From assembly GCF_965641715.1 (NCBI RefSeq), contig NZ_OZ282458.1: a stretch of DNA of 7,176 nt, one strand, 5' to 3'. How positions within the stretch are numbered: the first letter of the stretch is position 1; every line of letters starts with the position of its first letter. Both the position numbers and the translations under genes were made by a program. The stretch comes from Escherichia coli (lineage in GTDB: Bacteria > Pseudomonadota > Gammaproteobacteria > Enterobacterales > Enterobacteriaceae). The notes below the pieces were generated by a model that saw only the letters and a program-made list of their open reading frames with translations, was not told where the DNA came from and did no database searches. Of this stretch, positions 1 to 7,176 are shown piece by piece.

Positions 1-285
1 TTACTTGAACGCTGTGAGGGTAAACAACTGGCGGTATGGATGCGGCGGGTCTGCCTGGGGGAGCCGGTTGCCCGTTCCGGGAAGCTGCCGACACTGGCAC
101 CGCCGTTACTGCGTCAGCTGGCCGCCATCGGGAATAACCTGAATCAGACGGCGAGGAAGGTGAACAGCGAGCAGTGGTCTTCCGGTGACCGGGTTCAGGT
201 GGTGGCCGCACTGATGGCCATCGAGAGAGAGTTGCGCAGCTTACGGCAGGTCGTCAGGGAACATGGAGCGCGGGATGATAGTTAA
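1..285 (+). CDS. mobC: Relaxosome accessory protein MobC/MbeC, C-terminal 94 codons plus stop. The frame is open from base 1, and the N-terminal 13 codons lie at 7138..7176 across the circular join.
   Basis: Frame 1 has no stop from nt 1 (LLERCEGKQLAVWMRRVCLGEPVARSGKLP..). It contains the MobC-family signature LAAIGNNLNQTARKVN. The TAA stop at 283-285 overlaps the mobA ATG (275) by 11 nt. The sequence closely matches my recollection of ColE1 MbeC. Confidence 0.85.
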   Translation, partial: LLERCEGKQLAVWMRRVCLGEPVARSGKLPTLAPPLLRQLAAIGNNLNQTARKVNSEQWSSGDRVQVVAALMAIERELRSLRQVVREHGARDDS

Positions 286-1828
286 GTTTCATGCCAGGGG
301 AAAAGGCGGTGGCAGTGGTCCGGTTGATTACCTGCTGGGAAGGGAGCGTAACCGGGAAGGGGCAACGGTGCTTCAGGGTGATCCGGAAGAAGTCCGGGAA
401 CTCATCGATGCCACGCCATTTGCGAAGAAATACACGTCAGGTGTTCTGTCGTTCGCGGAGAAGGAGCTGCCGCCGGGAGGACGTGAAAAGGTGATGGCGA
501 GCTTTGAGCGTGTACTGATGCCCGGTCTCGAAAAGAATCAGTACAGCATCCTGTGGGTAGAGCACCAGGACAAGGGACGGCTTGAGCTGAATTTTGTCAT
601 TCCGAACATGGAGCTACAGACCGGAAAACGCCTCCAGCCGTACTACGACCGGGCAGACAGGCCGAGAATTGATGCCTGGCAGACGCTGGTGAATCACCAT
701 TACGGGCTGCATGACCCCAACGCCCCGGAGAACCGCCGGACGCTGACCCTTCCTGATAACCTGCCGGAAACGAAACAGGCGCTTGCAGAGAGCGTCACAC
801 GCGGGATAGACGCTCTTTATCATGTCGGGGAGATAAAAGGCCGTCAGGATGTGATTCAGGCGCTCACAGAGGCAGGGCTTGAAGTGGTCAGGGTGACGCG
901 AAGCAGTATCAGCATTGCAGACCCGAACGGTGGGAAGAATATCAGGCTGAAAGGAGCATTTTATGAGCAATCTTTTACAGACGGGCGCGGAGTTCGAGAA
1001 AAAGCTGAAAGAGAGAGCCGAATCTACAGAGACAATGCTGAACGACGAGTTCAGCAAGCTCGAAAAATCTGTAAGCAAGGCTGTGACATCAAACGAGACG
1101 AAAATCAAAGACGCTATAGCCCTGTTCACAGCTTCGACAGAGGAATCACTGAAAAAACACCGGGAAGGGGTGAAAGAGGCGATGATGCAGCACAGGAAGG
1201 ACGTGTTAAAGCTGGCAGGGAATACGGGCATGATGTTACTGGGGATGGTCATTTTCCTGTTTACCGTGAGTGGCGGGACGCTCTGGTATCTTGGCGGGAT
1301 GATACAGGCGAACCTGGAAGAAATCAGGATACAGGAAGAAACATTGCAGAAACTGAACGCGAAGACATGGGGCGTGGAGTTTGTGCAGGACGGGAGAAGG
1401 AAATTTCTGGTCATCCCGCAGGGGAAATCGGCAACGGTGATTCCCTATCAGGGGAAGGACTGGGTACAACTGACGGAGTGACACAGAGTGACGGAGCTGG
1501 AAAGACATTTGCTGAACGCCTTAGAGCAACTGCAACAGGACTATATGCAGCGGCTGAACGAATGGGAGAGCGCCTTCGTGGAATTGCAGAAAATGTTTTC
1601 GCTTACGCAACAGGACAACGCGATGCTGAACGAGCAGGTCATGCAGTTGAGTCAGCAGGTGCAGCACTTGAGCGAGCGGACAGAACGCTTGAGCCAGTTA
1701 TACAGCGAGAACAGGAGATAAGGGACGAACGGCTGATACAGGAGCGCGAACATGAGTTATCCCTGGAGCGTGAGCGCCAGCTGGAAATACAGGAACGGAC
1801 ACTGGATGGCCCTTCGCTGGGATGGTAA
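275..1828 (+). CDS. mobA: MOB(HEN)-family relaxase MobA/MbeA, 517 aa
   Basis: Starting at ATG 275 (MIVKFHARGKGGGSGPVDYLL) puts the catalytic Tyr at residue 19. It also puts the H97/E104/N106 HEN motif (WVEHQDKGRLELNFVIPN) at the positions described for ColE1 MbeA. GGAG at 265-268 lies 6 nt upstream. The ORF-track start at 263 adds 4 codons and is less likely. The C-terminal half is Arg/Glu/Gly-rich and hosts the nested mobB/mobD frames. Confidence 0.9.
   Translation: MIVKFHARGKGGGSGPVDYLLGRERNREGATVLQGDPEEVRELIDATPFAKKYTSGVLSFAEKELPPGGREKVMASFERVLMPGLEKNQYSILWVEHQDKGRLELNFVIPNMELQTGKRLQPYYDRADRPRIDAWQTLVNHHYGLHDPNAPENRRTLTLPDNLPETKQALAESVTRGIDALYHVGEIKGRQDVIQALTEAGLEVVRVTRSSISIADPNGGKNIRLKGAFYEQSFTDGRGVREKAERESRIYRDNAERRVQQARKICKQGCDIKRDENQRRYSPVHSFDRGITEKTPGRGERGDDAAQEGRVKAGREYGHDVTGDGHFPVYREWRDALVSWRDDTGEPGRNQDTGRNIAETEREDMGRGVCAGREKEISGHPAGEIGNGDSLSGEGLGTTDGVTQSDGAGKTFAERLRATATGLYAAAERMGERLRGIAENVFAYATGQRDAERAGHAVESAGAALERADRTLEPVIQREQEIRDERLIQEREHELSLERERQLEIQERTLDGPSLGW
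963..1481 (+). CDS. mobB: Mobilization protein MobB/MbeB, 172 aa, entirely nested inside mobA in another frame
   Basis: AGGAG at 952-956 lies 6 nt before ATG 963. There is one hydrophobic segment (MMLLGMVIFLFTVSGGTLWYLGGM). Size, position and sequence fit the ColE1 mbeB arrangement. Confidence 0.8.
   Translation: MSNLLQTGAEFEKKLKERAESTETMLNDEFSKLEKSVSKAVTSNETKIKDAIALFTASTEESLKKHREGVKEAMMQHRKDVLKLAGNTGMMLLGMVIFLFTVSGGTLWYLGGMIQANLEEIRIQEETLQKLNAKTWGVEFVQDGRRKFLVIPQGKSATVIPYQGKDWVQLTE
1488..1721 (+). CDS. mobD: Mobilization protein MobD/MbeD, 77 aa, nested in the mobA 3' half, same frame as mobB
   Basis: The GTG start at 1488 is 9 nt after GGAG (1475-1478) and 6 nt after the mobB stop. The protein is coiled-coil-like and Gln/Leu-rich (MTELERHLLNALEQLQQDYMQRLNEWE..), as in ColE1 MbeD. 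Confidence 0.7.
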   Translation: MTELERHLLNALEQLQQDYMQRLNEWESAFVELQKMFSLTQQDNAMLNEQVMQLSQQVQHLSERTERLSQLYSENRR

Positions 1829-2079
1829 TCAGAGACAGGCTAAAATGTTGTCAGCGCGTTTCCGGTGCATTTTTTGGGATAATGGTTGGTTCGGGGGCAC
1901 CGGGAACGCGCTTCAGTCAGACCTTGCTGAAAACACAGGAACGCGTTAAAACGCATACGGGCGCGATTCTGGTGTGTCTTTTGTTGCTGTGTTTTGCCTC
2001 TATTGCCAGATCGCGCTCATTCCCCTGAACTTCTGTTTTCCCGCTCCGGTCCCCGTCTTCTTCGCTTCCGAAAGCATGA

Positions 2080-2275
2080 AAAAAATCCGTTTCAGCAGTC
2101 TCTGGCTGGCAATTCCTGCGTGATTCACATGGCTGCATAGCTATGCATGTGGTTAAAATTTACCGGGTGCGATCGCGGCAGTTTTTCGGGTGGTTTGTTG
2201 CCATTTTTACCTGTCTGCTGCCGTGATCGCACCGAACGCGTTTCTGCGGTGCGGGCAACGGATGTTATGGTAAAT
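2080..2275 (+). other. cer: cer-type multimer-resolution site: accessory (ArgR/PepA) sequences plus XerC/XerD core
   Basis: Bases 2133-2247 align almost base for base with my recollection of ColE1 cer (..tgcatagNtatNcatNNggttaaaattta..gcgatcgcggcagtttttcgggtggtttgttgccatttttacctgtctgctgccgtgatcgc..gaacgcgttt..). The ARG-box-like palindrome ctgcatagctatgcatgt at 2133-2150 lies about 115 bp upstream of the crossover core. The left boundary is approximate. In ColE1 this region also holds the Pcer/Rcd promoter, which I have not mapped here. Confidence 0.85.
2248..2275 (+). other. Xer crossover core: XerC arm GGTGCGGGCAA, 6-bp central region CGGATG, XerD arm TTATGGTAAAT
   Basis: The XerD arm is identical to the ColE1 cer arm. 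The XerC arm differs at 2 positions from GGTGCGTACAA. The central region is 6 bp, against 8 bp (TTAAGGGA) in ColE1 cer. Confidence 0.8.
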
Positions 2276-2300
2276 ACAATATGCAGCCAGTCTTAGAGAC

Positions 2301-2329
2301 GAAAAGTCCGCCCAGAAGACTGACTTTTC
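2301..2329 (-). terminator. Hairpin 4 nt downstream of the 68-aa gene stop; possible terminator of the small-gene operon
   Basis: gaaaagtc (2301-2308) pairs with gacttttc (2322-2329), giving an 8-bp perfect stem and a 13-nt loop. The U-run lies inside the 3' arm rather than trailing it. A competing 7-bp stem exists (2288-2294 with 2317-2323). Confidence 0.3.
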
Positions 2330-2332
2330 AGA

Positions 2333-2539
2333 TCAACCTTCAGCATCTAACTTGTCTATCGCTTTTTTATTGCGCCGATAGGTAGCCATTAGTTCACCAT
2401 CGCCTGATTGTAAGTCACGACCTGCTTGCTCAGCATAGGTATCGTTTACAGTCTTAGCGCCTTTTTTATAGGCCTTTTTAACATCATCAAATCCGGCTTG
2501 GATGACTTCTTTCGGCTTTTCTTGAGGTAATTTAGCCAT
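2333..2539 (-). CDS. Hypothetical small protein, 68 aa, Lys/Ala/Asp-rich, predicted helical, no recognisable family
   Basis: The ATG at 2539 overlaps the stop of the upstream 127-aa gene by 8 nt (ATGGCTAA), which indicates translational coupling. No signal peptide, TM segment or HTH is obvious. Confidence 0.55.
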   Translation of the reverse strand: MAKLPQEKPKEVIQAGFDDVKKAYKKGAKTVNDTYAEQAGRDLQSGDGELMATYRRNKKAIDKLDAEG

Positions 2540-2915
2540 GCTGTGAATCCTCTATAAGGTTGATTATTTTTCCAACAGATAAGACGGCATCTTCTGTGTC
2601 GCTGATTTTATGATTTATCCAACCGTCCTCTATCTTTAATTTGTTCACTACTCCTAATGTAAAAACAACCTTTTTTTCAGGAAAGAAAATTGCAAAGGTT
2701 CTACTTTTCTCTTTCCAATCAGAGGGCGGCGTCGAACGGAACGCTACATTCCTCGATTTAAGTATCGCTTTGATTTTACTAATTAATTCTTTTTTTTGTT
2801 TATTGCTGAGATTTTTGACGAACCCTTTGCTGAGATTGTCTGTGTAATCATCAAAAGAAATATCAACTGGTTTGTTTTTTTGTTTTTTATCAGATAGATG
2901 AACAATGTTTGACAC
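2532..2915 (-). CDS. Hypothetical protein, 127 aa, Lys-rich N-terminal half, no recognisable family
   Basis: The GTG start at 2915 has AGGA 6 nt upstream (complement of about 2922-2925). The gene is very AT-rich, yet its ORF is the only long one in the interval. It is followed by the overlapping 68-aa gene. Confidence 0.55.
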   Translation of the reverse strand: MSNIVHLSDKKQKNKPVDISFDDYTDNLSKGFVKNLSNKQKKELISKIKAILKSRNVAFRSTPPSDWKEKSRTFAIFFPEKKVVFTLGVVNKLKIEDGWINHKISDTEDAVLSVGKIINLIEDSQHG

Positions 2916-3054
2916 TGGATATCCTGCTTTTTGATGAATGAATACTCAGAAGAGTAGCGGAACTGTCTTGTTAGTCACAGAGGTAGAGTATCAATTCTAC
3001 GATAGATGGGTTCGAAGATCCGGCTGAGACCGTTCAGTACGCGGTCGAGATGTT

Positions 3055-3059
3055 ATGTT
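3055..3059. repeat. Left copy of the 5-bp target-site duplication ATGTT
   Basis: Identical pentamers directly abut both outer ends of the element (3055-3059 and 3269-3273). A 5-bp duplication is the Tn3-family hallmark. Confidence 0.85.
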
Positions 3060-3097
3060 GGGGTCTGAAGTCCAATGGAACGAAAACGTACGTTAGT
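3060..3097 (+). repeat. Left 38-bp terminal inverted repeat
   Basis: ggggtctgaagtccaatggaacgaaaacgtacgttagt matches about 33/38 against my recollection of the gamma-delta (Tn1000) IR GGGGTTTGAGGGCCAATGGAACGAAAACGTACGTTAAG. It matches about 30/38 against the Tn3 IR. Confidence 0.85.
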
Positions 3098-3140
3098 GAA
3101 GTAACTGTATGATATATCAAGACATAATAGACATAGAAAA

Positions 3141-3164
3141 ACGCCATCAAAACGGTGTCTTTTT
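3141..3164 (+). terminator. Weak terminator-like hairpin plus T-run inside the miniature element
   Basis: acgcc (3141-3145) pairs with ggtgt (3154-3158) including one G-U pair, followed by cttttt. On the minus strand the same stem has an A-C mismatch followed by ttttt. The stem is only 5 bp, so it is marginal on either strand. Confidence 0.25.
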
Positions 3165-3230
3165 AATCGAAAATTGGCACTTAACGGACGGCATTGTCTA
3201 CTAATCGATTTTTAAGACGATAATTTTCCT

Positions 3231-3268
3231 CTTACCGTACATTTTCGTACGGTTGGCCCTCAAACCCC
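3231..3268 (-). repeat. Right 38-bp terminal inverted repeat
   Basis: The reverse complement ggggtttgagggccaaccgtacgaaaatgtacggtaag matches about 33/38 against the recalled gamma-delta IR and 28/38 against the left IR of this element. Confidence 0.85.
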
Positions 3269-3273
3269 ATGTT
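3269..3273. repeat. Right copy of the 5-bp target-site duplication ATGTT
   Basis: See the left copy at 3055-3059. Confidence 0.85.
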
Positions 3274-3519
3274 CAATGTAATGACCGTCGAAATTGCCTT
3301 TACGGGCATGAAGCAACCAGGAGCAATCATTGGCAAAGGTAACTAGAGTTCAATGCATGGTAATCATTTTTGAGCTTGTGATGCATAGAGTTGGTTGCTG
3401 TTCCATTGCGTCTCAAACTCCGTCAAGATGCTCGCCGTAAAAGCGAGCATGTCTAGTATGCCTGTTCCGCTACTGATTTTTGATGGGCGAATTCAGGGCT
3501 GGCTAGCCACCAAGAAAAA

Positions 3520-4581
3520 TTACTTTATTTCATCAAACAGGTGAGATGCAGTATAATAAACGCTTTGATCAAAGCGTCTCTCTGGGCTTAATTTATTTTG
3601 CCCGCCATTTAAAATTATTTCTTTTAATACTGATGGTGGAAGGATGGGTTTTGTTCTTCTTGGGTGATCCATATAAGCTTTTGTTATTTTTCCGTTTAGC
3701 GAGAACTCTTTATCACTTTGATATCCAAAGTTCATCTCAGTATAAATTCTATTGATGTTTGTCTTGTTTTTGCTCGCAATTTCATACACCATTCTGGCGA
3801 GTCTGGCTGATGATCTCATTAGTCTGCTGGCAGATGAATTGTTATATGAGGATCTATCAATAAAGGTTCGACACAAAGCAAAATCACTCCAGATGAATAT
3901 GTCAAAGGCATTTTGATCTAATATTGGGCTCTTGCCTTTTGTTTTCCATAATGGTTGCATTAAAAAAGGTTTCTGGTAATCAAGAAAATTTTCTTGGAAA
4001 GTGTTTAGGCAATTTAATATATTTTCTTTCTTTGAAAGAACTTCAGTTTCATTCCCCCAGTGCTGTATGCTTTCGCATGTGGATTCAAATATTTTTCTTA
4101 TTTCATGGAATTTATCGCTGCAAGAGTGCATTATGCCAAGGGCACAATAAGAAGTGCTTGCAGGTCTTATTACAATCTCTGAACTCCATTCGCTCTCGTT
4201 TTCTTTATATGTCGTGCTATCTGGGAGTACGGTTAATTTTATTTCTAGTGCTTTTAAAAAACTATTGTTTCCTTTTATAACTAGATCTATTCCTTTTATG
4301 TCATCATAAGCATACTGTTGGTATGGTTCATATTTTTTCTCAAATTGAAATTCAAGATCACTATTTTTTAATGTTGTGTTAAAAACGAAGTCAAAAGATA
4401 CTTCTTTGGCATGCACTTTTAAATCCTTATCTAAATAAAGATAAATCGGATTCATTTTGTTGTCTCTCATATAACATGCTAGAGAGGTGGGAAAAGAACT
4501 GTTAAATTGGTTCTTTCCCCACAGATCGCTCTCTTTCCTGTTGGTGTTTTTTAAACCATAAAGAGATTCTATTTTGCTCAC
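3520..4581 (-). CDS. Candidate Type II restriction endonuclease, 353 aa, PD-(D/E)xK fold; specificity unknown
   Basis: It is divergent from, and 87 bp away from, a C5 methyltransferase gene. A candidate catalytic motif is GID(99)LV..x13..ALE(113)IK(115)LT. The GTG start at 4581 follows a strong SD AGGAG (complement of 4588-4592) with a 6-nt spacer. Base composition is AT-rich, as for the methylase. Confidence 0.7.
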   Translation of the reverse strand: MSKIESLYGLKNTNRKESDLWGKNQFNSSFPTSLACYMRDNKMNPIYLYLDKDLKVHAKEVSFDFVFNTTLKNSDLEFQFEKKYEPYQQYAYDDIKGIDLVIKGNNSFLKALEIKLTVLPDSTTYKENESEWSSEIVIRPASTSYCALGIMHSCSDKFHEIRKIFESTCESIQHWGNETEVLSKKENILNCLNTFQENFLDYQKPFLMQPLWKTKGKSPILDQNAFDIFIWSDFALCRTFIDRSSYNNSSASRLMRSSARLARMVYEIASKNKTNINRIYTEMNFGYQSDKEFSLNGKITKAYMDHPRRTKPILPPSVLKEIILNGGQNKLSPERRFDQSVYYTASHLFDEIK

Positions 4582-4592
4582 TTTTTGCTCCT

Positions 4593-4612
4593 GACGTCAA
4601 TTTATTGACGTC
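4593..4612. promoter_or_regulatory. Perfect palindromic operator candidate GACGTCAAT-tt-ATTGACGTC in the R/M divergent intergenic region
   Basis: It has 9-bp perfect inverted arms (4593-4601 and 4604-4612) with a 2-bp centre. It overlaps the -35 of the methylase promoter and abuts the endonuclease SD. It contains two GACGTC hexamers. Confidence 0.6.
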
Positions 4613-4633
4613 TATGGTGTGTTTCTATATCAT
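4605..4633 (+). promoter_or_regulatory. Sigma70-type promoter candidate for the methyltransferase gene
   Basis: -35 TTGACG (4605-4610, 5/6), a 17-bp spacer, then -10 TATCAT (4628-4633, 5/6). The predicted start is near 4640, about 29 nt before ATG 4669. Confidence 0.5.
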
Positions 4634-4646
4634 GATGTGGAGTGAT

Positions 4647-4675
4647 ATGATAATGAGTTTTTTATGTTATGAGAA
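4647..4675 (-). promoter_or_regulatory. Weaker sigma70-type promoter candidate for the endonuclease gene, facing the methylase promoter
   Basis: On the minus strand: -35 TTCTCA (complement of 4670-4675, 4/6), a 17-bp spacer, then -10 TATCAT (complement of 4647-4652, 5/6). The predicted start near 4640 would place the palindrome in the 5' leader of the R mRNA. Confidence 0.3.
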
Positions 4676-5826
4676 TAATTGATCTTTTTAGTGGGTGTGG
4701 GGGGTTATCCCTAGGCTTTTTGAAGGGGGGGTTTGATGTTGTAGGTGCTTATGATTTCTGGGATCCTGCTATTGAATGTTACAGAGATAATTTTAGCCAT
4801 CCGATAAAAAAACTAGATTTGAGCAATGTTGATGATGTGGTGAGGGAGCTTAAAGATATAGACTTCGATATGATTATTGGAGGGCCTCCTTGCCAAGACT
4901 TCAGTCATGCAGGTTTAAGAATTGAAGGTGCTAGAGCTAACTTAACTCGCTCATTTTCAGAAATTATAAAAAGAATAAAGCCAAAGTGGTTTGTGATGGA
5001 AAATGTAGATCGGGCATTAAGAAGTGGTGCCTATTTAGAAGCTCGAGGAATCTTTAAAGAATCAGGGTATGGGTTAACAGAAATTGTTTTGGATGCCAGT
5101 AAGTGTGGTGTTCCGCAAAAAAGAAAAAGATTATTTGTAATTGGAAAGCTTGACGTGAGGGATGGTTTTATCCTTAACGAAGTGATGTGCGGGATATCGA
5201 AAGATAGTATGACAGTTAGAAATTATCTTGGTGATTCATTGGGGATTGAGTATTATTACAGACATCCGAGAAATTATAACAGAAGGGCTATTTTCTCTAT
5301 TGATGAACCTGCGCCAACAGTAAGAGGGGTTAATAGACCGATACCTGATGGATATTTAGGGCATGCAGGCGATCCTGTCAGTATTTCTGAGAATGTAAGG
5401 CCATTAACAACCTTTGAAAGAGCAAGATTGCAAACATTTCCTGAAGACTTTAAATTTAAAGGTGCAAAAACAAATTTGGAGCAAATGATAGGTAATGCTG
5501 TTCCGGTTGAGTTAGCAAAATATGTTGCGGTGACAATCATGGAGTATGAAAAAAAACAAGTAAAAGGTATTTATGATAAAGAAGGCTTTAGGGCGTGGTT
5601 GCTGAATGAAAAGAAACTAACAAAAAGAACCTCTAGCGATATTATATCTAGATGTTGCAGAGGTGTTTCATTTTTTGATTCAGAGGGGGTGGATTTTTAT
5701 AACTGTGAAATAGATGAAATTATTATGAAACTGGAAAGGCTTGAATCGTTTGTCAGGCTTGGGGTTAGCCTGAAGTCTCAGTTAAGAAGGGCTTTTAAAT
5801 TATATTACGAATATTGTCGAAGGTAA
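4669..5826 (+). CDS. DNA (cytosine-5)-methyltransferase, 385 aa, Dcm family, with a C-terminal extension of about 95 aa
   Basis: All canonical motifs are present in order: I DLFSGCGG (aa 5-12), IV GGPPCQDFS (catalytic Cys74), VI ENV (111-113), VIII QKRKR (150-154), IX RPLTTFERARLQTFPEDF, X GNAVPV (275-280). The variable/target-recognition region is short (about aa 160-245). Residues from about 292 to 385 lie beyond motif X. Confidence 0.9.
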   Translation: MRIIDLFSGCGGLSLGFLKGGFDVVGAYDFWDPAIECYRDNFSHPIKKLDLSNVDDVVRELKDIDFDMIIGGPPCQDFSHAGLRIEGARANLTRSFSEIIKRIKPKWFVMENVDRALRSGAYLEARGIFKESGYGLTEIVLDASKCGVPQKRKRLFVIGKLDVRDGFILNEVMCGISKDSMTVRNYLGDSLGIEYYYRHPRNYNRRAIFSIDEPAPTVRGVNRPIPDGYLGHAGDPVSISENVRPLTTFERARLQTFPEDFKFKGAKTNLEQMIGNAVPVELAKYVAVTIMEYEKKQVKGIYDKEGFRAWLLNEKKLTKRTSSDIISRCCRGVSFFDSEGVDFYNCEIDEIIMKLERLESFVRLGVSLKSQLRRAFKLYYEYCRR

Positions 5827-5886
5827 TAAATACGAATTTATGTCTCTCAGGGGAGGGGGAGGGGATAAAAAGATCAAAGGATCCTC

Positions 5887-5915
5887 TTGTGATCCTTTTT
5901 TTCTGCGCGTAATCT
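5887..5915 (+). promoter_or_regulatory. RNAII (replication primer) promoter
   Basis: -35 TTGTGA (5887-5892), a 17-bp spacer, then -10 TAATCT (5910-5915). It is collinear with the pMB1/pBR322 promoter ttgagatcctttttttctgcgcgtaatct. Confidence 0.8.
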
Positions 5916-5926
5916 GCTGCCTGTAA

Positions 5927-6034
5927 ACAAAAAAACCACCGCTACCAACGGTGGTTTGTTTGCCGGAATCTAGAGCTACCAACTCTTTCTTCCGAAGGTA
6001 ACTGGCTTGGTGGAGCACAGATACCAAATACTGT
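5927..6034 (-). ncRNA. RNAI: RNAI antisense copy-number regulator (about 108 nt)
   Basis: The reverse complement reads acagtatttggtatctgtgctccaccaagccagttaccttcggaagaaagagttggtagctctagattccggcaaacaaaccaccgttggtagcggtggtttttttgt. It has a three-stem-loop architecture collinear with pMB1 RNAI. Confidence 0.85.
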
Positions 6035-6040
6035 CCTTCT

Positions 6041-6070
6041 AGTGTAGCCGCAGTTAGGCCACCACTTCAA
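6041..6070 (-). promoter_or_regulatory. RNAI promoter
   Basis: The minus strand reads ttgaagtggtggcctaactgcggctacact. The -35 TTGAAG is the complement of 6065-6070 and the -10 TACACT is the complement of 6041-6046. It differs at one base from the recalled pBR322 sequence. Confidence 0.75.
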
Positions 6071-6459
6071 GAACTCTTAATATCTCAATCCACCTTGTCC
6101 AGTTACCAGTGGCTGCTGCCAGTGGCGCTTTGTCGTGTCTTACCGGGTTGGACTCAAGACGATAGTTACCGGATAAGGCGCAGCGGTCGGGCTGAACGGG
6201 GGGTTCGTGCACACAGCCCAGCTTGGAGCGAACGACCTACACCGAACTGAGATACCAACAGCGTGAGCTATGAGAAAGCGCCACGCTTCCCGAAGGGAGA
6301 AAGGCGGACAGGTATCCGGTAAGCGGCAGGGTCGGAACAGGAGAGCGCACGAGGGAGCTTCCAGGGGGAAACGCCTGGTATCTTTAAGTCCTGTCGGGTT
6401 TCGCCACCTCTGACTTGAGCGTCGATTTTTGTGATGCTCGTCAGGGGGGCGGAGCCTAT

Positions 6460-6485
6460 GGAAAAACGCCAGCGGCGTGGCCTTC
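6460..6485 (+). other. oriV: oriV: RNA-to-DNA transition region of ColE1-type replication (approximate)
   Basis: ggaaaaacgccagcggcgtggcc corresponds to pBR322 GGAAAAACGCCAGCAACGCGGCC, where leading-strand synthesis starts. Confidence 0.6.
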
Positions 6486-6689
6486 TCTGGGTTCTTGTTT
6501 TTTGCTCACATGTTTCTTTTGGTGTTATCCCCTGATTCTGTGGATAACCGCATTACCGTCTTTGAGTGAGCTGATACCGCTCGCCGCAGCCGAACGACCG
6601 AGCGTAGCGAGTCAGTGAGCGAGGAAGCGGAAGAGCGTCGGAAGTTGCATTTTCTCCTTACACATCTGTGCGGCATTTCACACCCGGCA

Positions 6690-6780
6690 TGGCGCACTTT
6701 TCATACAATCTGCACTGATGCCGCATGGTTAAGCCAGTATACACTCCGCTATCGCTACGTGACTGGGTCAGGGCTTCGCC
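6690..6780 (-). other. oriT: bom/oriT region with predicted nic on the minus strand between 6734 and 6733 (..gtatactgg|cttaac..)
   Basis: ccgcatggttaagccagtatacactccgctatcgctacgtgactgggtca is collinear with the pBR322 bom region (..CCGCATAGTTAAGCCAGTATACACTCCGCTATCGCTACGTGACTGGGTCA..). The ColE1 nick is recalled as CTGG/CTTA next to GTATAC. Confidence 0.7.
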
Positions 6781-6882
6781 CCGACACCCGCAAGGTCAAC
6801 GGCCTGACGCGCCCTGACGGGCTTGTCTGCTCCCGGCATCCGCTCACAGACAAGCTGTGACCGTCTCCGGGAGCTGTATGTG

Positions 6883-7074
6883 TCAGAGGTTTTCACCGTC
6901 ATCCCCGAAGCGTGCGAGGCAGCTGCGGTAAAGCTCATCGGCGTGGTCGTGAAGCGATTCACAGATGTCTGCCTGTTCATCCGCGTCCAGTTCGTTGAGC
7001 TTTTCCAGCAGCGTTAATGTCTGGCTTCTGATAAAGCGCGCCATGTTAAGGGCTGTTTTTTCCTGTTTAGTCAC
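6883..7074 (-). CDS. rop: Rop/Rom, RNAI-RNAII kissing-complex stabiliser, 63 aa
   Basis: From GTG 7074 the product is MTKQEKTALNMARFIRSQTLTLLEKLNELDADEQADICESLHDHADELYRSCLARFGDDGENL, identical as far as I recall to pBR322 Rop. The 95-aa ORF-track version (to 7170) is an upstream in-frame extension. Confidence 0.9.
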   Translation of the reverse strand: MTKQEKTALNMARFIRSQTLTLLEKLNELDADEQADICESLHDHADELYRSCLARFGDDGENL

Positions 7075-7137
7075 TGATGCCTCCGTGTAAGGGGGATTTC
7101 TGTTCATGGGGTAATGATACCGATGAAACGCGAGAGG

Positions 7138-7176
7138 ATGCTCACGATACGGGTTACTGATGATGAACATGCACGG
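7138..7176 (+). CDS. mobC: MobC/MbeC N-terminal 13 codons (MLTIRVTDDEHAR), continuing at base 1 across the circular join; 107 aa in total
   Basis: The frame is contiguous with frame 1 of the window start. An upstream in-frame stop lies at 7075-7077. In-frame ATGs occur at 7114, 7123 and 7138. ATG 7138 gives the MLT..RVT.DEH..LLERC N-terminus recalled for MbeC, a ribbon-helix-helix beta-strand region. Confidence 0.6.
   Translation, partial: MLTIRVTDDEHAR

Follow-up and report, generated by a model that had tools for sequence, protein, structure and literature searches.

A ColE1-type mobilizable plasmid as a two-junction recombinant with one junction at a cer-like Xer core

The window, by which we mean the whole 7,176-bp stretch of DNA analyzed, is a complete circular ColE1-type mobilizable plasmid in circularly permuted form, since its two ends are contiguous in the relative L001. 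It is a two-junction recombinant, because informative sites switch from the type of L001 to that of a second relative, L003, and back again; one junction lies at the core of a cer-like Xer site and the other in the conserved 3' stretch of RNA II. The swapped unit is therefore ~4.1 kb (2257–6360) and comprises an AT-rich cargo together with the RNA II promoter and RNA I, the incompatibility determinant. Near-identical complete plasmids from independent isolates are present in PLSDB (CP061256.1, 7,178 bp; NZ_AP025744.1, 7,166 bp). The relatives compared here are L001 (CP016039.1, 5,775 bp), L002 (NZ_CP080231.1), L003 (NZ_AP027174.1, 6,715 bp), pEC34B (L246, NC_019078.1, 6,952 bp), L249 (NZ_OW967970.1, 5,593 bp) and L207, a metagenome contig.

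The cer-like Xer site

The GC content is 0.542 in 1–2275, 0.371 in 2276–5857 and 0.541 in 5858–7176. Blastn against ColE1 (NC_001371.1) aligned 1–1826 at 93.4%, 2130–2278 at 84.8% and 5868–7176 at 92.2%, with no match between these segments. An earlier reading, made from the sequence only, had stated that similarity to cer ends at the XerD arm and that AT-rich DNA follows; the extent of the match (2130–2278) and the fall in GC from ~0.54 to 0.37 bear this out. The site is organized as follows.

2130–2247, plus strand: cer accessory sequence on the XerC side, with an ArgR-box-like palindrome; within the 84.8% match to ColE1 cer 3792–3941
2248–2258, plus strand: predicted XerC-binding arm, GGTGCGGGCAA; the same in L001 and L002
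2259–2264, plus strand: central region CGGATG, 6 bp, the place of Xer strand exchange; the same spacer in ColA and pIGRW12
2265–2275, plus strand: predicted XerD-binding arm, TTATGGTAAAT; identical to the ColE1 arm, with divergence of all backbone relatives immediately past it

The core at 2248–2275 reads GGTGCGGGCAA-CGGATG-TTATGGTAAAT, and that of ColE1, at 3909–3938 of NC_001371.1, reads GGTGCGTACAA-TTAAGGGA-TTATGGTAAAT. The ColE1 reference used by the sequence-only reading was correct: two changes in the XerC arm, a central region of 6 rather than 8 bp, and an identical XerD arm. Against the Xer-arm consensus the core has 0 mismatches, and the best of 200 composition-preserving shuffles had at least 4. 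The palindrome, TGCATAGCTATGCAT at 2134–2148, lies 99 nt from the XerC arm, compared with 98 nt in ColE1 and 100 nt in ColA (PMC11724359 supplement). Cer-type sites have a spacer of 6–8 bp and an accessory sequence of ~180 bp on the XerC side (PMC2699498, PMC5357621, PMC11724359); in the window only ~118 bp (2130–2247) are ColE1-like, and the distal part of the ~180-bp region is not. Its arms match the consensus, its spacer is 6 bp long and the ArgR box lies 99 nt upstream; the site fits the cer type and, judged by these features, would have what a functional site needs.

Both strands were scanned for a second Xer site, including the boundaries at 3352/3353 and 5857, and none rose above shuffle background; the next-best candidate in the window has 6 mismatches, equal to that background. 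The cer type is also marked by an internal promoter, Pcer, and the Rcd checkpoint RNA; an Rfam search of the window matched RNA I and nothing else.

The 6-bp spacer, together with the two XerC-arm changes, had been read as the mark of a hybrid core. This part of the earlier claim was not supported, since CGGATG is also the spacer of ColA, whose Xer site is GGTGCCGACAA-CGGATG-TTATGGTAAAT, and a spacer of 6 bp is found in six of the eight characterised sites, namely dif and five of the seven from plasmids, the NTP16 and ColE1 spacers being 7 and 8 bp long, respectively (PMC11724359). Moreover, this exact 28-mer is catalogued as the Xer site of pIGRW12, where it is accompanied by an ArgR-type accessory sequence (Fournes et al., NAR 2025, PMC11724359). 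Natural cer-like cores with 6-, 7- and 8-bp spacers also occur in species genomes, as found by a degenerate pattern scan whose matches, mostly chance ones in unrelated phyla, were kept where the upstream sequence was cer-like.

Two junctions and the unit between them

The transitions between the two parental types were narrowed to two short intervals.

2257–2276, unstranded: crossover interval 1, the only stretch common to both parental types; L001 identity ends at 2276, and L003/pEC34B identity starts at 2257
6361–6385, unstranded: crossover interval 2, in the conserved RNA II 3' stretch; last L001/L249 mismatches at 6359–6360, first L003/pEC34B-specific mismatch at 6386

Megablast of 1850–2700 against PLSDB returned 1,275 records, of which only six read across the junction. 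Matches at 99.8–100% that cover 1850–2276 and end there come from many plasmids of 5,128 and 5,775 bp, and the 6,715-bp plasmids match 2130–2700. L001 and L002 share the 28-bp core of the window, with different DNA behind it in each, and in L003 the downstream DNA of the window follows GGTGTGCGTAA-CGGATG-TTATGGTAAAT. The sequence-only reading had named related backbones with the same DNA past 2275 as the finding that would speak against it; L001 and L002 carry unrelated DNA there instead. It had also proposed a search for the same cargo beside a different cer, and such sequences were found, with another XerC arm in L003 and pEC34B and another accessory sequence in L207.

Mismatch maps displayed the same mosaic along the whole circle. 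L001 has 1 mismatch in 1–2276 and 6 in 6361–7176, is strongly divergent in 6023–6360, and carries an unrelated cargo. L003, the MITE aside, has 12 differences in 2257–6386, with ~5% of positions differing in the mbe genes and ~9% after 6478. When the window was compared with both, it was L001-type at 102 of 103 informative sites in 6–2256, L003-type at 71 of 74 in 6039–6360, and again L001-type at 56 of 58 in 6429–7173. The 6,715- and 6,952-bp plasmids share 2257 to ~6385 with the window at ~99.7% and have a more divergent backbone; the latter, pEC34B, is a third backbone variant that also shows both transitions.

The first crossover lies within 2257–2276, because L001 matches the window up to 2276 and L003 and pEC34B match it from 2257. 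This interval takes in the last two XerC-arm bases, the whole spacer, the whole XerD arm and a single base beyond it, and it is identical in all sequences, which hides the exact exchange point. L003 and pEC34B differ from the window within the XerC arm, at 2252, 2254 and 2256. In pEC34B these three are the sole mismatches within ~140 bp: its accessory sequence at 2111–2251 is that of the window and its arm is GGTGTGCGTAA, a 3-nt patch confined to the arm, which could have gone with the cargo side through a short conversion patch or branch migration of a Holliday junction. L207 has 39 mismatches in 2139–2245, where its accessory sequence is of the pIGRW12 type, and none from 2246 to 3352. Switch points thus fall between 2256 and 2257 (L003, pEC34B) and between 2245 and 2246 (L207), and at least eight further metagenome pairs behave alike among the matches listed.

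These comparisons (L001, L002, L003, pEC34B and L207) uphold the earlier proposal of a junction made by recombination at the cer core; the hybrid look of the core, which is that of a catalogued site, is not supported. A hybrid signature could not show in the core, because CGGATG-TTATGGTAAAT is common to the two inferred parents; the XerC arm goes with the backbone parent, and the whole core is present unchanged in many other plasmids.

A different picture was obtained with L249, an EcoRI restriction-modification plasmid. It is identical to the window in 1–2050, has 1 mismatch in 6361–7176, and differs from 2051/2097 on, accessory sequence and core included. Its core, GGTGCGTACAA-TAAGGGA-TTATGGTAAAT, is that of ColE1 with a spacer one base shorter (7 bp). 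Some exchanges in this plasmid network so took the whole cer along. One backbone block is accordingly found with at least three unrelated cargos.

The second interval, 6361–6385, is identical in all parents and lies upstream of the transfer-origin region; a second junction at oriT, the relaxase nick site, was considered and rejected on the mismatch maps. As this junction falls in the RNA II 3' stretch, the replication-control region moved with the cargo. An exchanged downstream segment, as first proposed, is therefore retained, and its extent is corrected from the AT-rich island alone to a unit from 2257 to ~6360 that includes RNA I and RNA II sequences. The backbone and the exchanged unit contain the following features.

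6361–7176, unstranded: backbone block, first part (replication origin, transfer-origin region, rom, start of mobC; continues at window position 1); 1 mismatch to L249, 6 to L001
6883–7074, minus strand: rom
1–2129, plus strand: backbone block, continued (mobC 3' end, mbe genes, spacer), from ORFs and the annotations of relatives
263–1828, plus strand: mbeA
963–1481, plus strand: mbeB
1488–1721, plus strand: mbeD
1827–2129, plus strand: spacer of ~300 bp separating mbeA from cer; no ColE1 counterpart
2277–3352, minus strand: cargo module A, two overlapping ORFs, MITE-interrupted
2333–2539, minus strand: ORF, 68 aa
2532–2915, minus strand: ORF, 127 aa
3060–3268: non-autonomous Tn3-family MITE/TIME, 209 bp, with imperfect 38-bp terminal inverted repeats starting GGGG
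3353–5857, unstranded: restriction-modification part of the cargo; Pfam PF09519 (E = 6.8e-102) and PF00145 (E = 7.4e-63), in agreement with the annotations of relatives
3520–4581, minus strand: HindVP-family endonuclease
4669–5826, divergent from the restriction gene: C5 methyltransferase
5858–6360, unstranded: RNA II promoter and 5' part, plus RNA I; inherited with the cargo (71 of 74 informative sites in 6039–6360 L003-type)
5927–6032, minus strand: RNA I (Rfam RF00106, 65.9 bits)

The spacer at 1827–2129 is common to L001, L002, pEC34B and L249 and absent from ColE1 and the 6,715-bp plasmids, which have ~73 bp there; it stands in for the distal ColE1 accessory region. On the far side of the cargo, homology to other replicons of the ColE1 type sets in at 5857/5858.

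The cargo itself is composite. Module A moves as a unit beside the XerD arm on at least four backbones, namely the window, the 6,715-bp plasmids, L207 and Cronobacter pA84-3; in the last it is 87.6% identical and adjoins a cer-like site with the spacer GAGATG. L207 carries the module without the restriction-modification genes, and Morganella plasmids carry the restriction-modification genes only (77–78%). The 127- and 68-aa ORFs had no match in Pfam, NCBIfam, PADLOC or PHROGs, nor to any family resembling Xer activation factors.

Two features within the cargo deserve description in their own right. The methyltransferase fits the Pfam C5 methylase model over residues 1–290 of 385, leaving a C-terminal extension of ~95 aa. 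The restriction and methylase genes diverge from an 87-bp gap that holds a perfect inverted repeat, GACGTCAAT-tt-ATTGACGTC at 4593–4612, with two GRCGYC-type sites; GRCGYC is the reported specificity of the HindVP/BsaHI family (PMC2413257). The repeat could be an operator or a methylation-sensitive switch.

The MITE has terminal repeats matching the Tn3 repeat at 30 of 38 and 26 of 38 positions and is flanked by a 5-bp target duplication, ATGTT (3055–3059 and 3269–3273), with the empty site preserved in L003 and pEC34B. It also occurs at 99–100% identity in many large E. coli plasmids, several of them from ETEC strains.

Origin of the mosaic

We consider it probable that the mosaic is best explained by a heterodimer formed through homologous recombination and resolved by XerCD at cer; Xer catalysis and the order of events are what we infer from the junction positions. 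Two blocks would have been brought together. Block A would run from 6361 through 7176/1 to ~2258 (origin, transfer-origin region, rom, mbe genes, accessory sequence and XerC arm); its source would be a lineage typified by CP016039.1 (L001) and NZ_OW967970.1 (L249). Block B would run from ~2259 to 6360 (central region, XerD arm, two-ORF module, HindVP-type genes, RNA II promoter and RNA I) and stem from a lineage of which the 6,715-bp plasmids and pEC34B are representatives. First, two compatible ColE1-type plasmids would have met in one cell, compatibility being probable because of the strong divergence between their RNA I regions. A heterodimer with two directly repeated cer sites sharing the CGGATG spacer would then have arisen by RecA-dependent recombination within the conserved RNA II 3' stretch, and XerCD with ArgR and PepA would have resolved it at the cores into monomers with reassorted left and right halves. 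The 209-bp MITE would have inserted later.

The biochemistry of cer is consistent with this explanation: ArgR and PepA act as a filter that admits intramolecular resolution only, and XerC exchanges the first strands to give a Holliday junction that is resolved by other cell functions (PMC2699498, PMC5357621, PMC11724359). It counts against the explanation that cer recombination is reported to be strictly intramolecular, so that an extra step is needed to form the heterodimer. Two observations also stand against it, namely the junction of L249, which lies outside the core, and the XerC arm of pEC34B, which accompanies the cargo side, contrary to a simple crossover in the spacer.

No heterodimer of the parental plasmids was found among the relatives. 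The 10,981-bp relative L248 (NZ_CP148343.1) was examined as a candidate cointegrate and rejected, being a window-type plasmid with a Tn3-family transposon. This 3.8-kb element (resolvase and transposase; 5780–9565) lies in mbeA with a ~7-bp duplication, and its ends are unrelated to those of the MITE. In PLSDB, NZ_CP148429.1 (13,431 bp) has roughly double the length of the 6,715-bp plasmid, with two or three matching places, and probably represents a head-to-tail dimer or the assembly of such a dimer.

The behavior of the core in other plasmids was then assessed by an exact-match scan of metagenome contigs, in which the core occurs at no fewer than 120 loci; among the matches listed, 123 identical-core copies with usable flanks, nearly all metagenomic, were compared. 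These matches fall into at least 31 left-flank and at least 62 right-flank types, and at least 56 mutually unrelated right flanks adjoin the identical core in metagenome contigs. Among the matches listed, one left type occurs with at least 19 right types, and at least 11 right types are each found with two or three left types. The same matches provide at least 416 pairs with the same left and an unrelated right flank. Among listed pairs of this kind the first mismatch past the XerD arm falls at +1 in 194, +2 in 60, +3 in 7 and +4 in 4, a geometric decay such as junctions placed exactly at the end of the arm would be expected to give. Conversely, in listed pairs that share a right flank (at least 99.5% over 355–400 nt) but have different left flanks, the first mismatch falls 3–9 nt left of the XerC arm. 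The invariant core is thus, among these copies, a recurrent point of flank reassortment.

These data bear directly on a rival account, in which cer is simply the edge of a constrained element and cargo is swapped by homologous or illegitimate recombination without Xer catalysis. Such an account has points in its favor: the colicin and exclusion genes of ColE1 itself occupy the stretch that follows the XerD arm (3938) and precedes the start of RNA II (~586), the conserved/variable boundary has been put at ColE1 position 3940 (Ares-Arroyo 2018), the second junction resembles plain homologous recombination, and the L249 comparison places a junction outside the core, in 2051–2245. Nevertheless, four independent comparisons (L001, L003, pEC34B and L207) place the switch within 2246–2276, the parents' common interval spans only 20 bp at the extreme end of homology, and identical stretches of 75–141 bp just to its left would be far better RecA substrates. 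Double homologous recombination is disfavored because of this 20-bp edge interval and the recurrence of the switch at the core. Selection alone would permit variable distances, whereas unrelated right flanks start at +1 in hundreds of pairs. We therefore regard the edge account as unlikely.

Alternatively, Xer recombination may have come first and acted between molecules, the core escaping the topological filter and fusing two plasmids; homologous recombination near the origin would then have separated the cointegrate. The identical core beside at least 56 unrelated right flanks agrees with this order, as does the resemblance of the core, with its 6-bp spacer and near-consensus XerC arm, to the type II cer x parB hybrid of Summers. 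That hybrid reportedly reads GGTGCGTACAA-GGGATG-TTATGGTAAAT and is reported to escape the topological filter. FtsK-dependent, accessory-independent recombination has been shown only for 28-bp Xer sites, the length of the core here, yet the surveyed Xer sites of small plasmids all have accessory sequences and are taken as PepA-dependent (PMC11724359). The window likewise keeps its accessory sequence and ArgR box at normal spacing; the sequence-only reading had suggested that a 6-bp spacer may alter the dependence on FtsK and accessory factors. Since the end product equals that of heterodimer resolution, sequence cannot separate the two orders of events, and we think the Xer-first order rather improbable on the retained accessory architecture.

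A broader possibility, which we hold to be speculative and doubtful, is that the 28-bp core of the ColA/pIGRW12 type, with its 6-bp spacer and strong XerC arm, serves as a general swapping hub in small enterobacterial plasmids, through intermolecular or FtsK-type Xer recombination despite the accessory sequence. If true, it would explain why one invariant core stands beside dozens of unrelated cargos and many accessory sequences, and it would constitute a single-site counterpart of the Acinetobacter pdif module system.

Finally, arrival of the island by transposition or IS-mediated insertion, for which the Tn3-type MITE inside it might speak, or a junction that is an assembly chimera, is extremely improbable and effectively refuted: the MITE is bounded by a separate 5-bp duplication and is missing from cargo that is identical apart from the empty site, inverted repeats and target duplications are lacking at 2276 and 5857, and CP061256.1 and NZ_AP025744.1 come from independent isolates.

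Relation to known Xer-bounded plasmids

The site resembles ColE1 cer in its XerD arm, its ArgR spacing (99 versus 98 nt) and its place between the mbe genes and the cargo slot, where a conserved/variable boundary at the mbeE/cer end of ColE1 has been described (Ares-Arroyo 2018). It differs at two XerC-arm positions, in having CGGATG for the 8-bp TTAAGGGA, and in the region upstream of 2130, which is not homologous. ColA shares the central region and XerD arm. The pIGRW12 core is identical over all 28 bp, whereas its accessory sequence is 72.8% identical over 2130–2275 and its DNA past the XerD arm is unrelated.

In the Acinetobacter pdif system Xer sites likewise bound movable cargo, but there is one at each end, and the window plasmid has one. 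A pdif-type module was rejected here, the runner-up Xer candidate having 6 mismatches, as in shuffled sequence.

In the laboratory, experimental cer x ckr and cer x parB hybrids (Summers 1985, 1989) reportedly arose by heterodimer resolution, with crossover in the core and reassorted flanks, as observed here in a natural plasmid. Their cores were, reportedly, visibly mixed, whereas in the window the exchange can be read only from the flanks and the XerC arm.

Natural precedents are the reports that Xer sites act as junctions in small-plasmid evolution: Zakharova et al. 2002 on the pECL18/pKPN2 restriction-modification plasmids and Tran et al. 2012 on qnrB19 plasmids (both as cited in PMC8683028 and PMC6764390). 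The model so cited concerns ColE1-type plasmids whose variable cargo, restriction-modification genes included, is bounded by an Xer site and reassorts through a cointegrate and its resolution, as proposed here. The window fits the pattern so described, with near-identical backbones that carry unrelated DNA from the core onward and the same cargo joined to other XerC sides. It departs from the Tran model in its second junction, which lies in the RNA II 3' stretch (6361–6385) and not at oriT.

The plasmid is thus a well-resolved new example of a known evolutionary route, and the mechanism is not new. It offers a base-by-base view of how a phage-defence module and its linked replication control may shift between mobilizable backbones via the host dimer-resolution system, a route by which resistance genes, qnrB19 among them, are also believed to spread on plasmids of the ColE1 type. 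The survey of metagenome contigs leaves the published idea unchanged and puts a number on it: at least 56 unrelated right flanks, with junctions at the arm ends.
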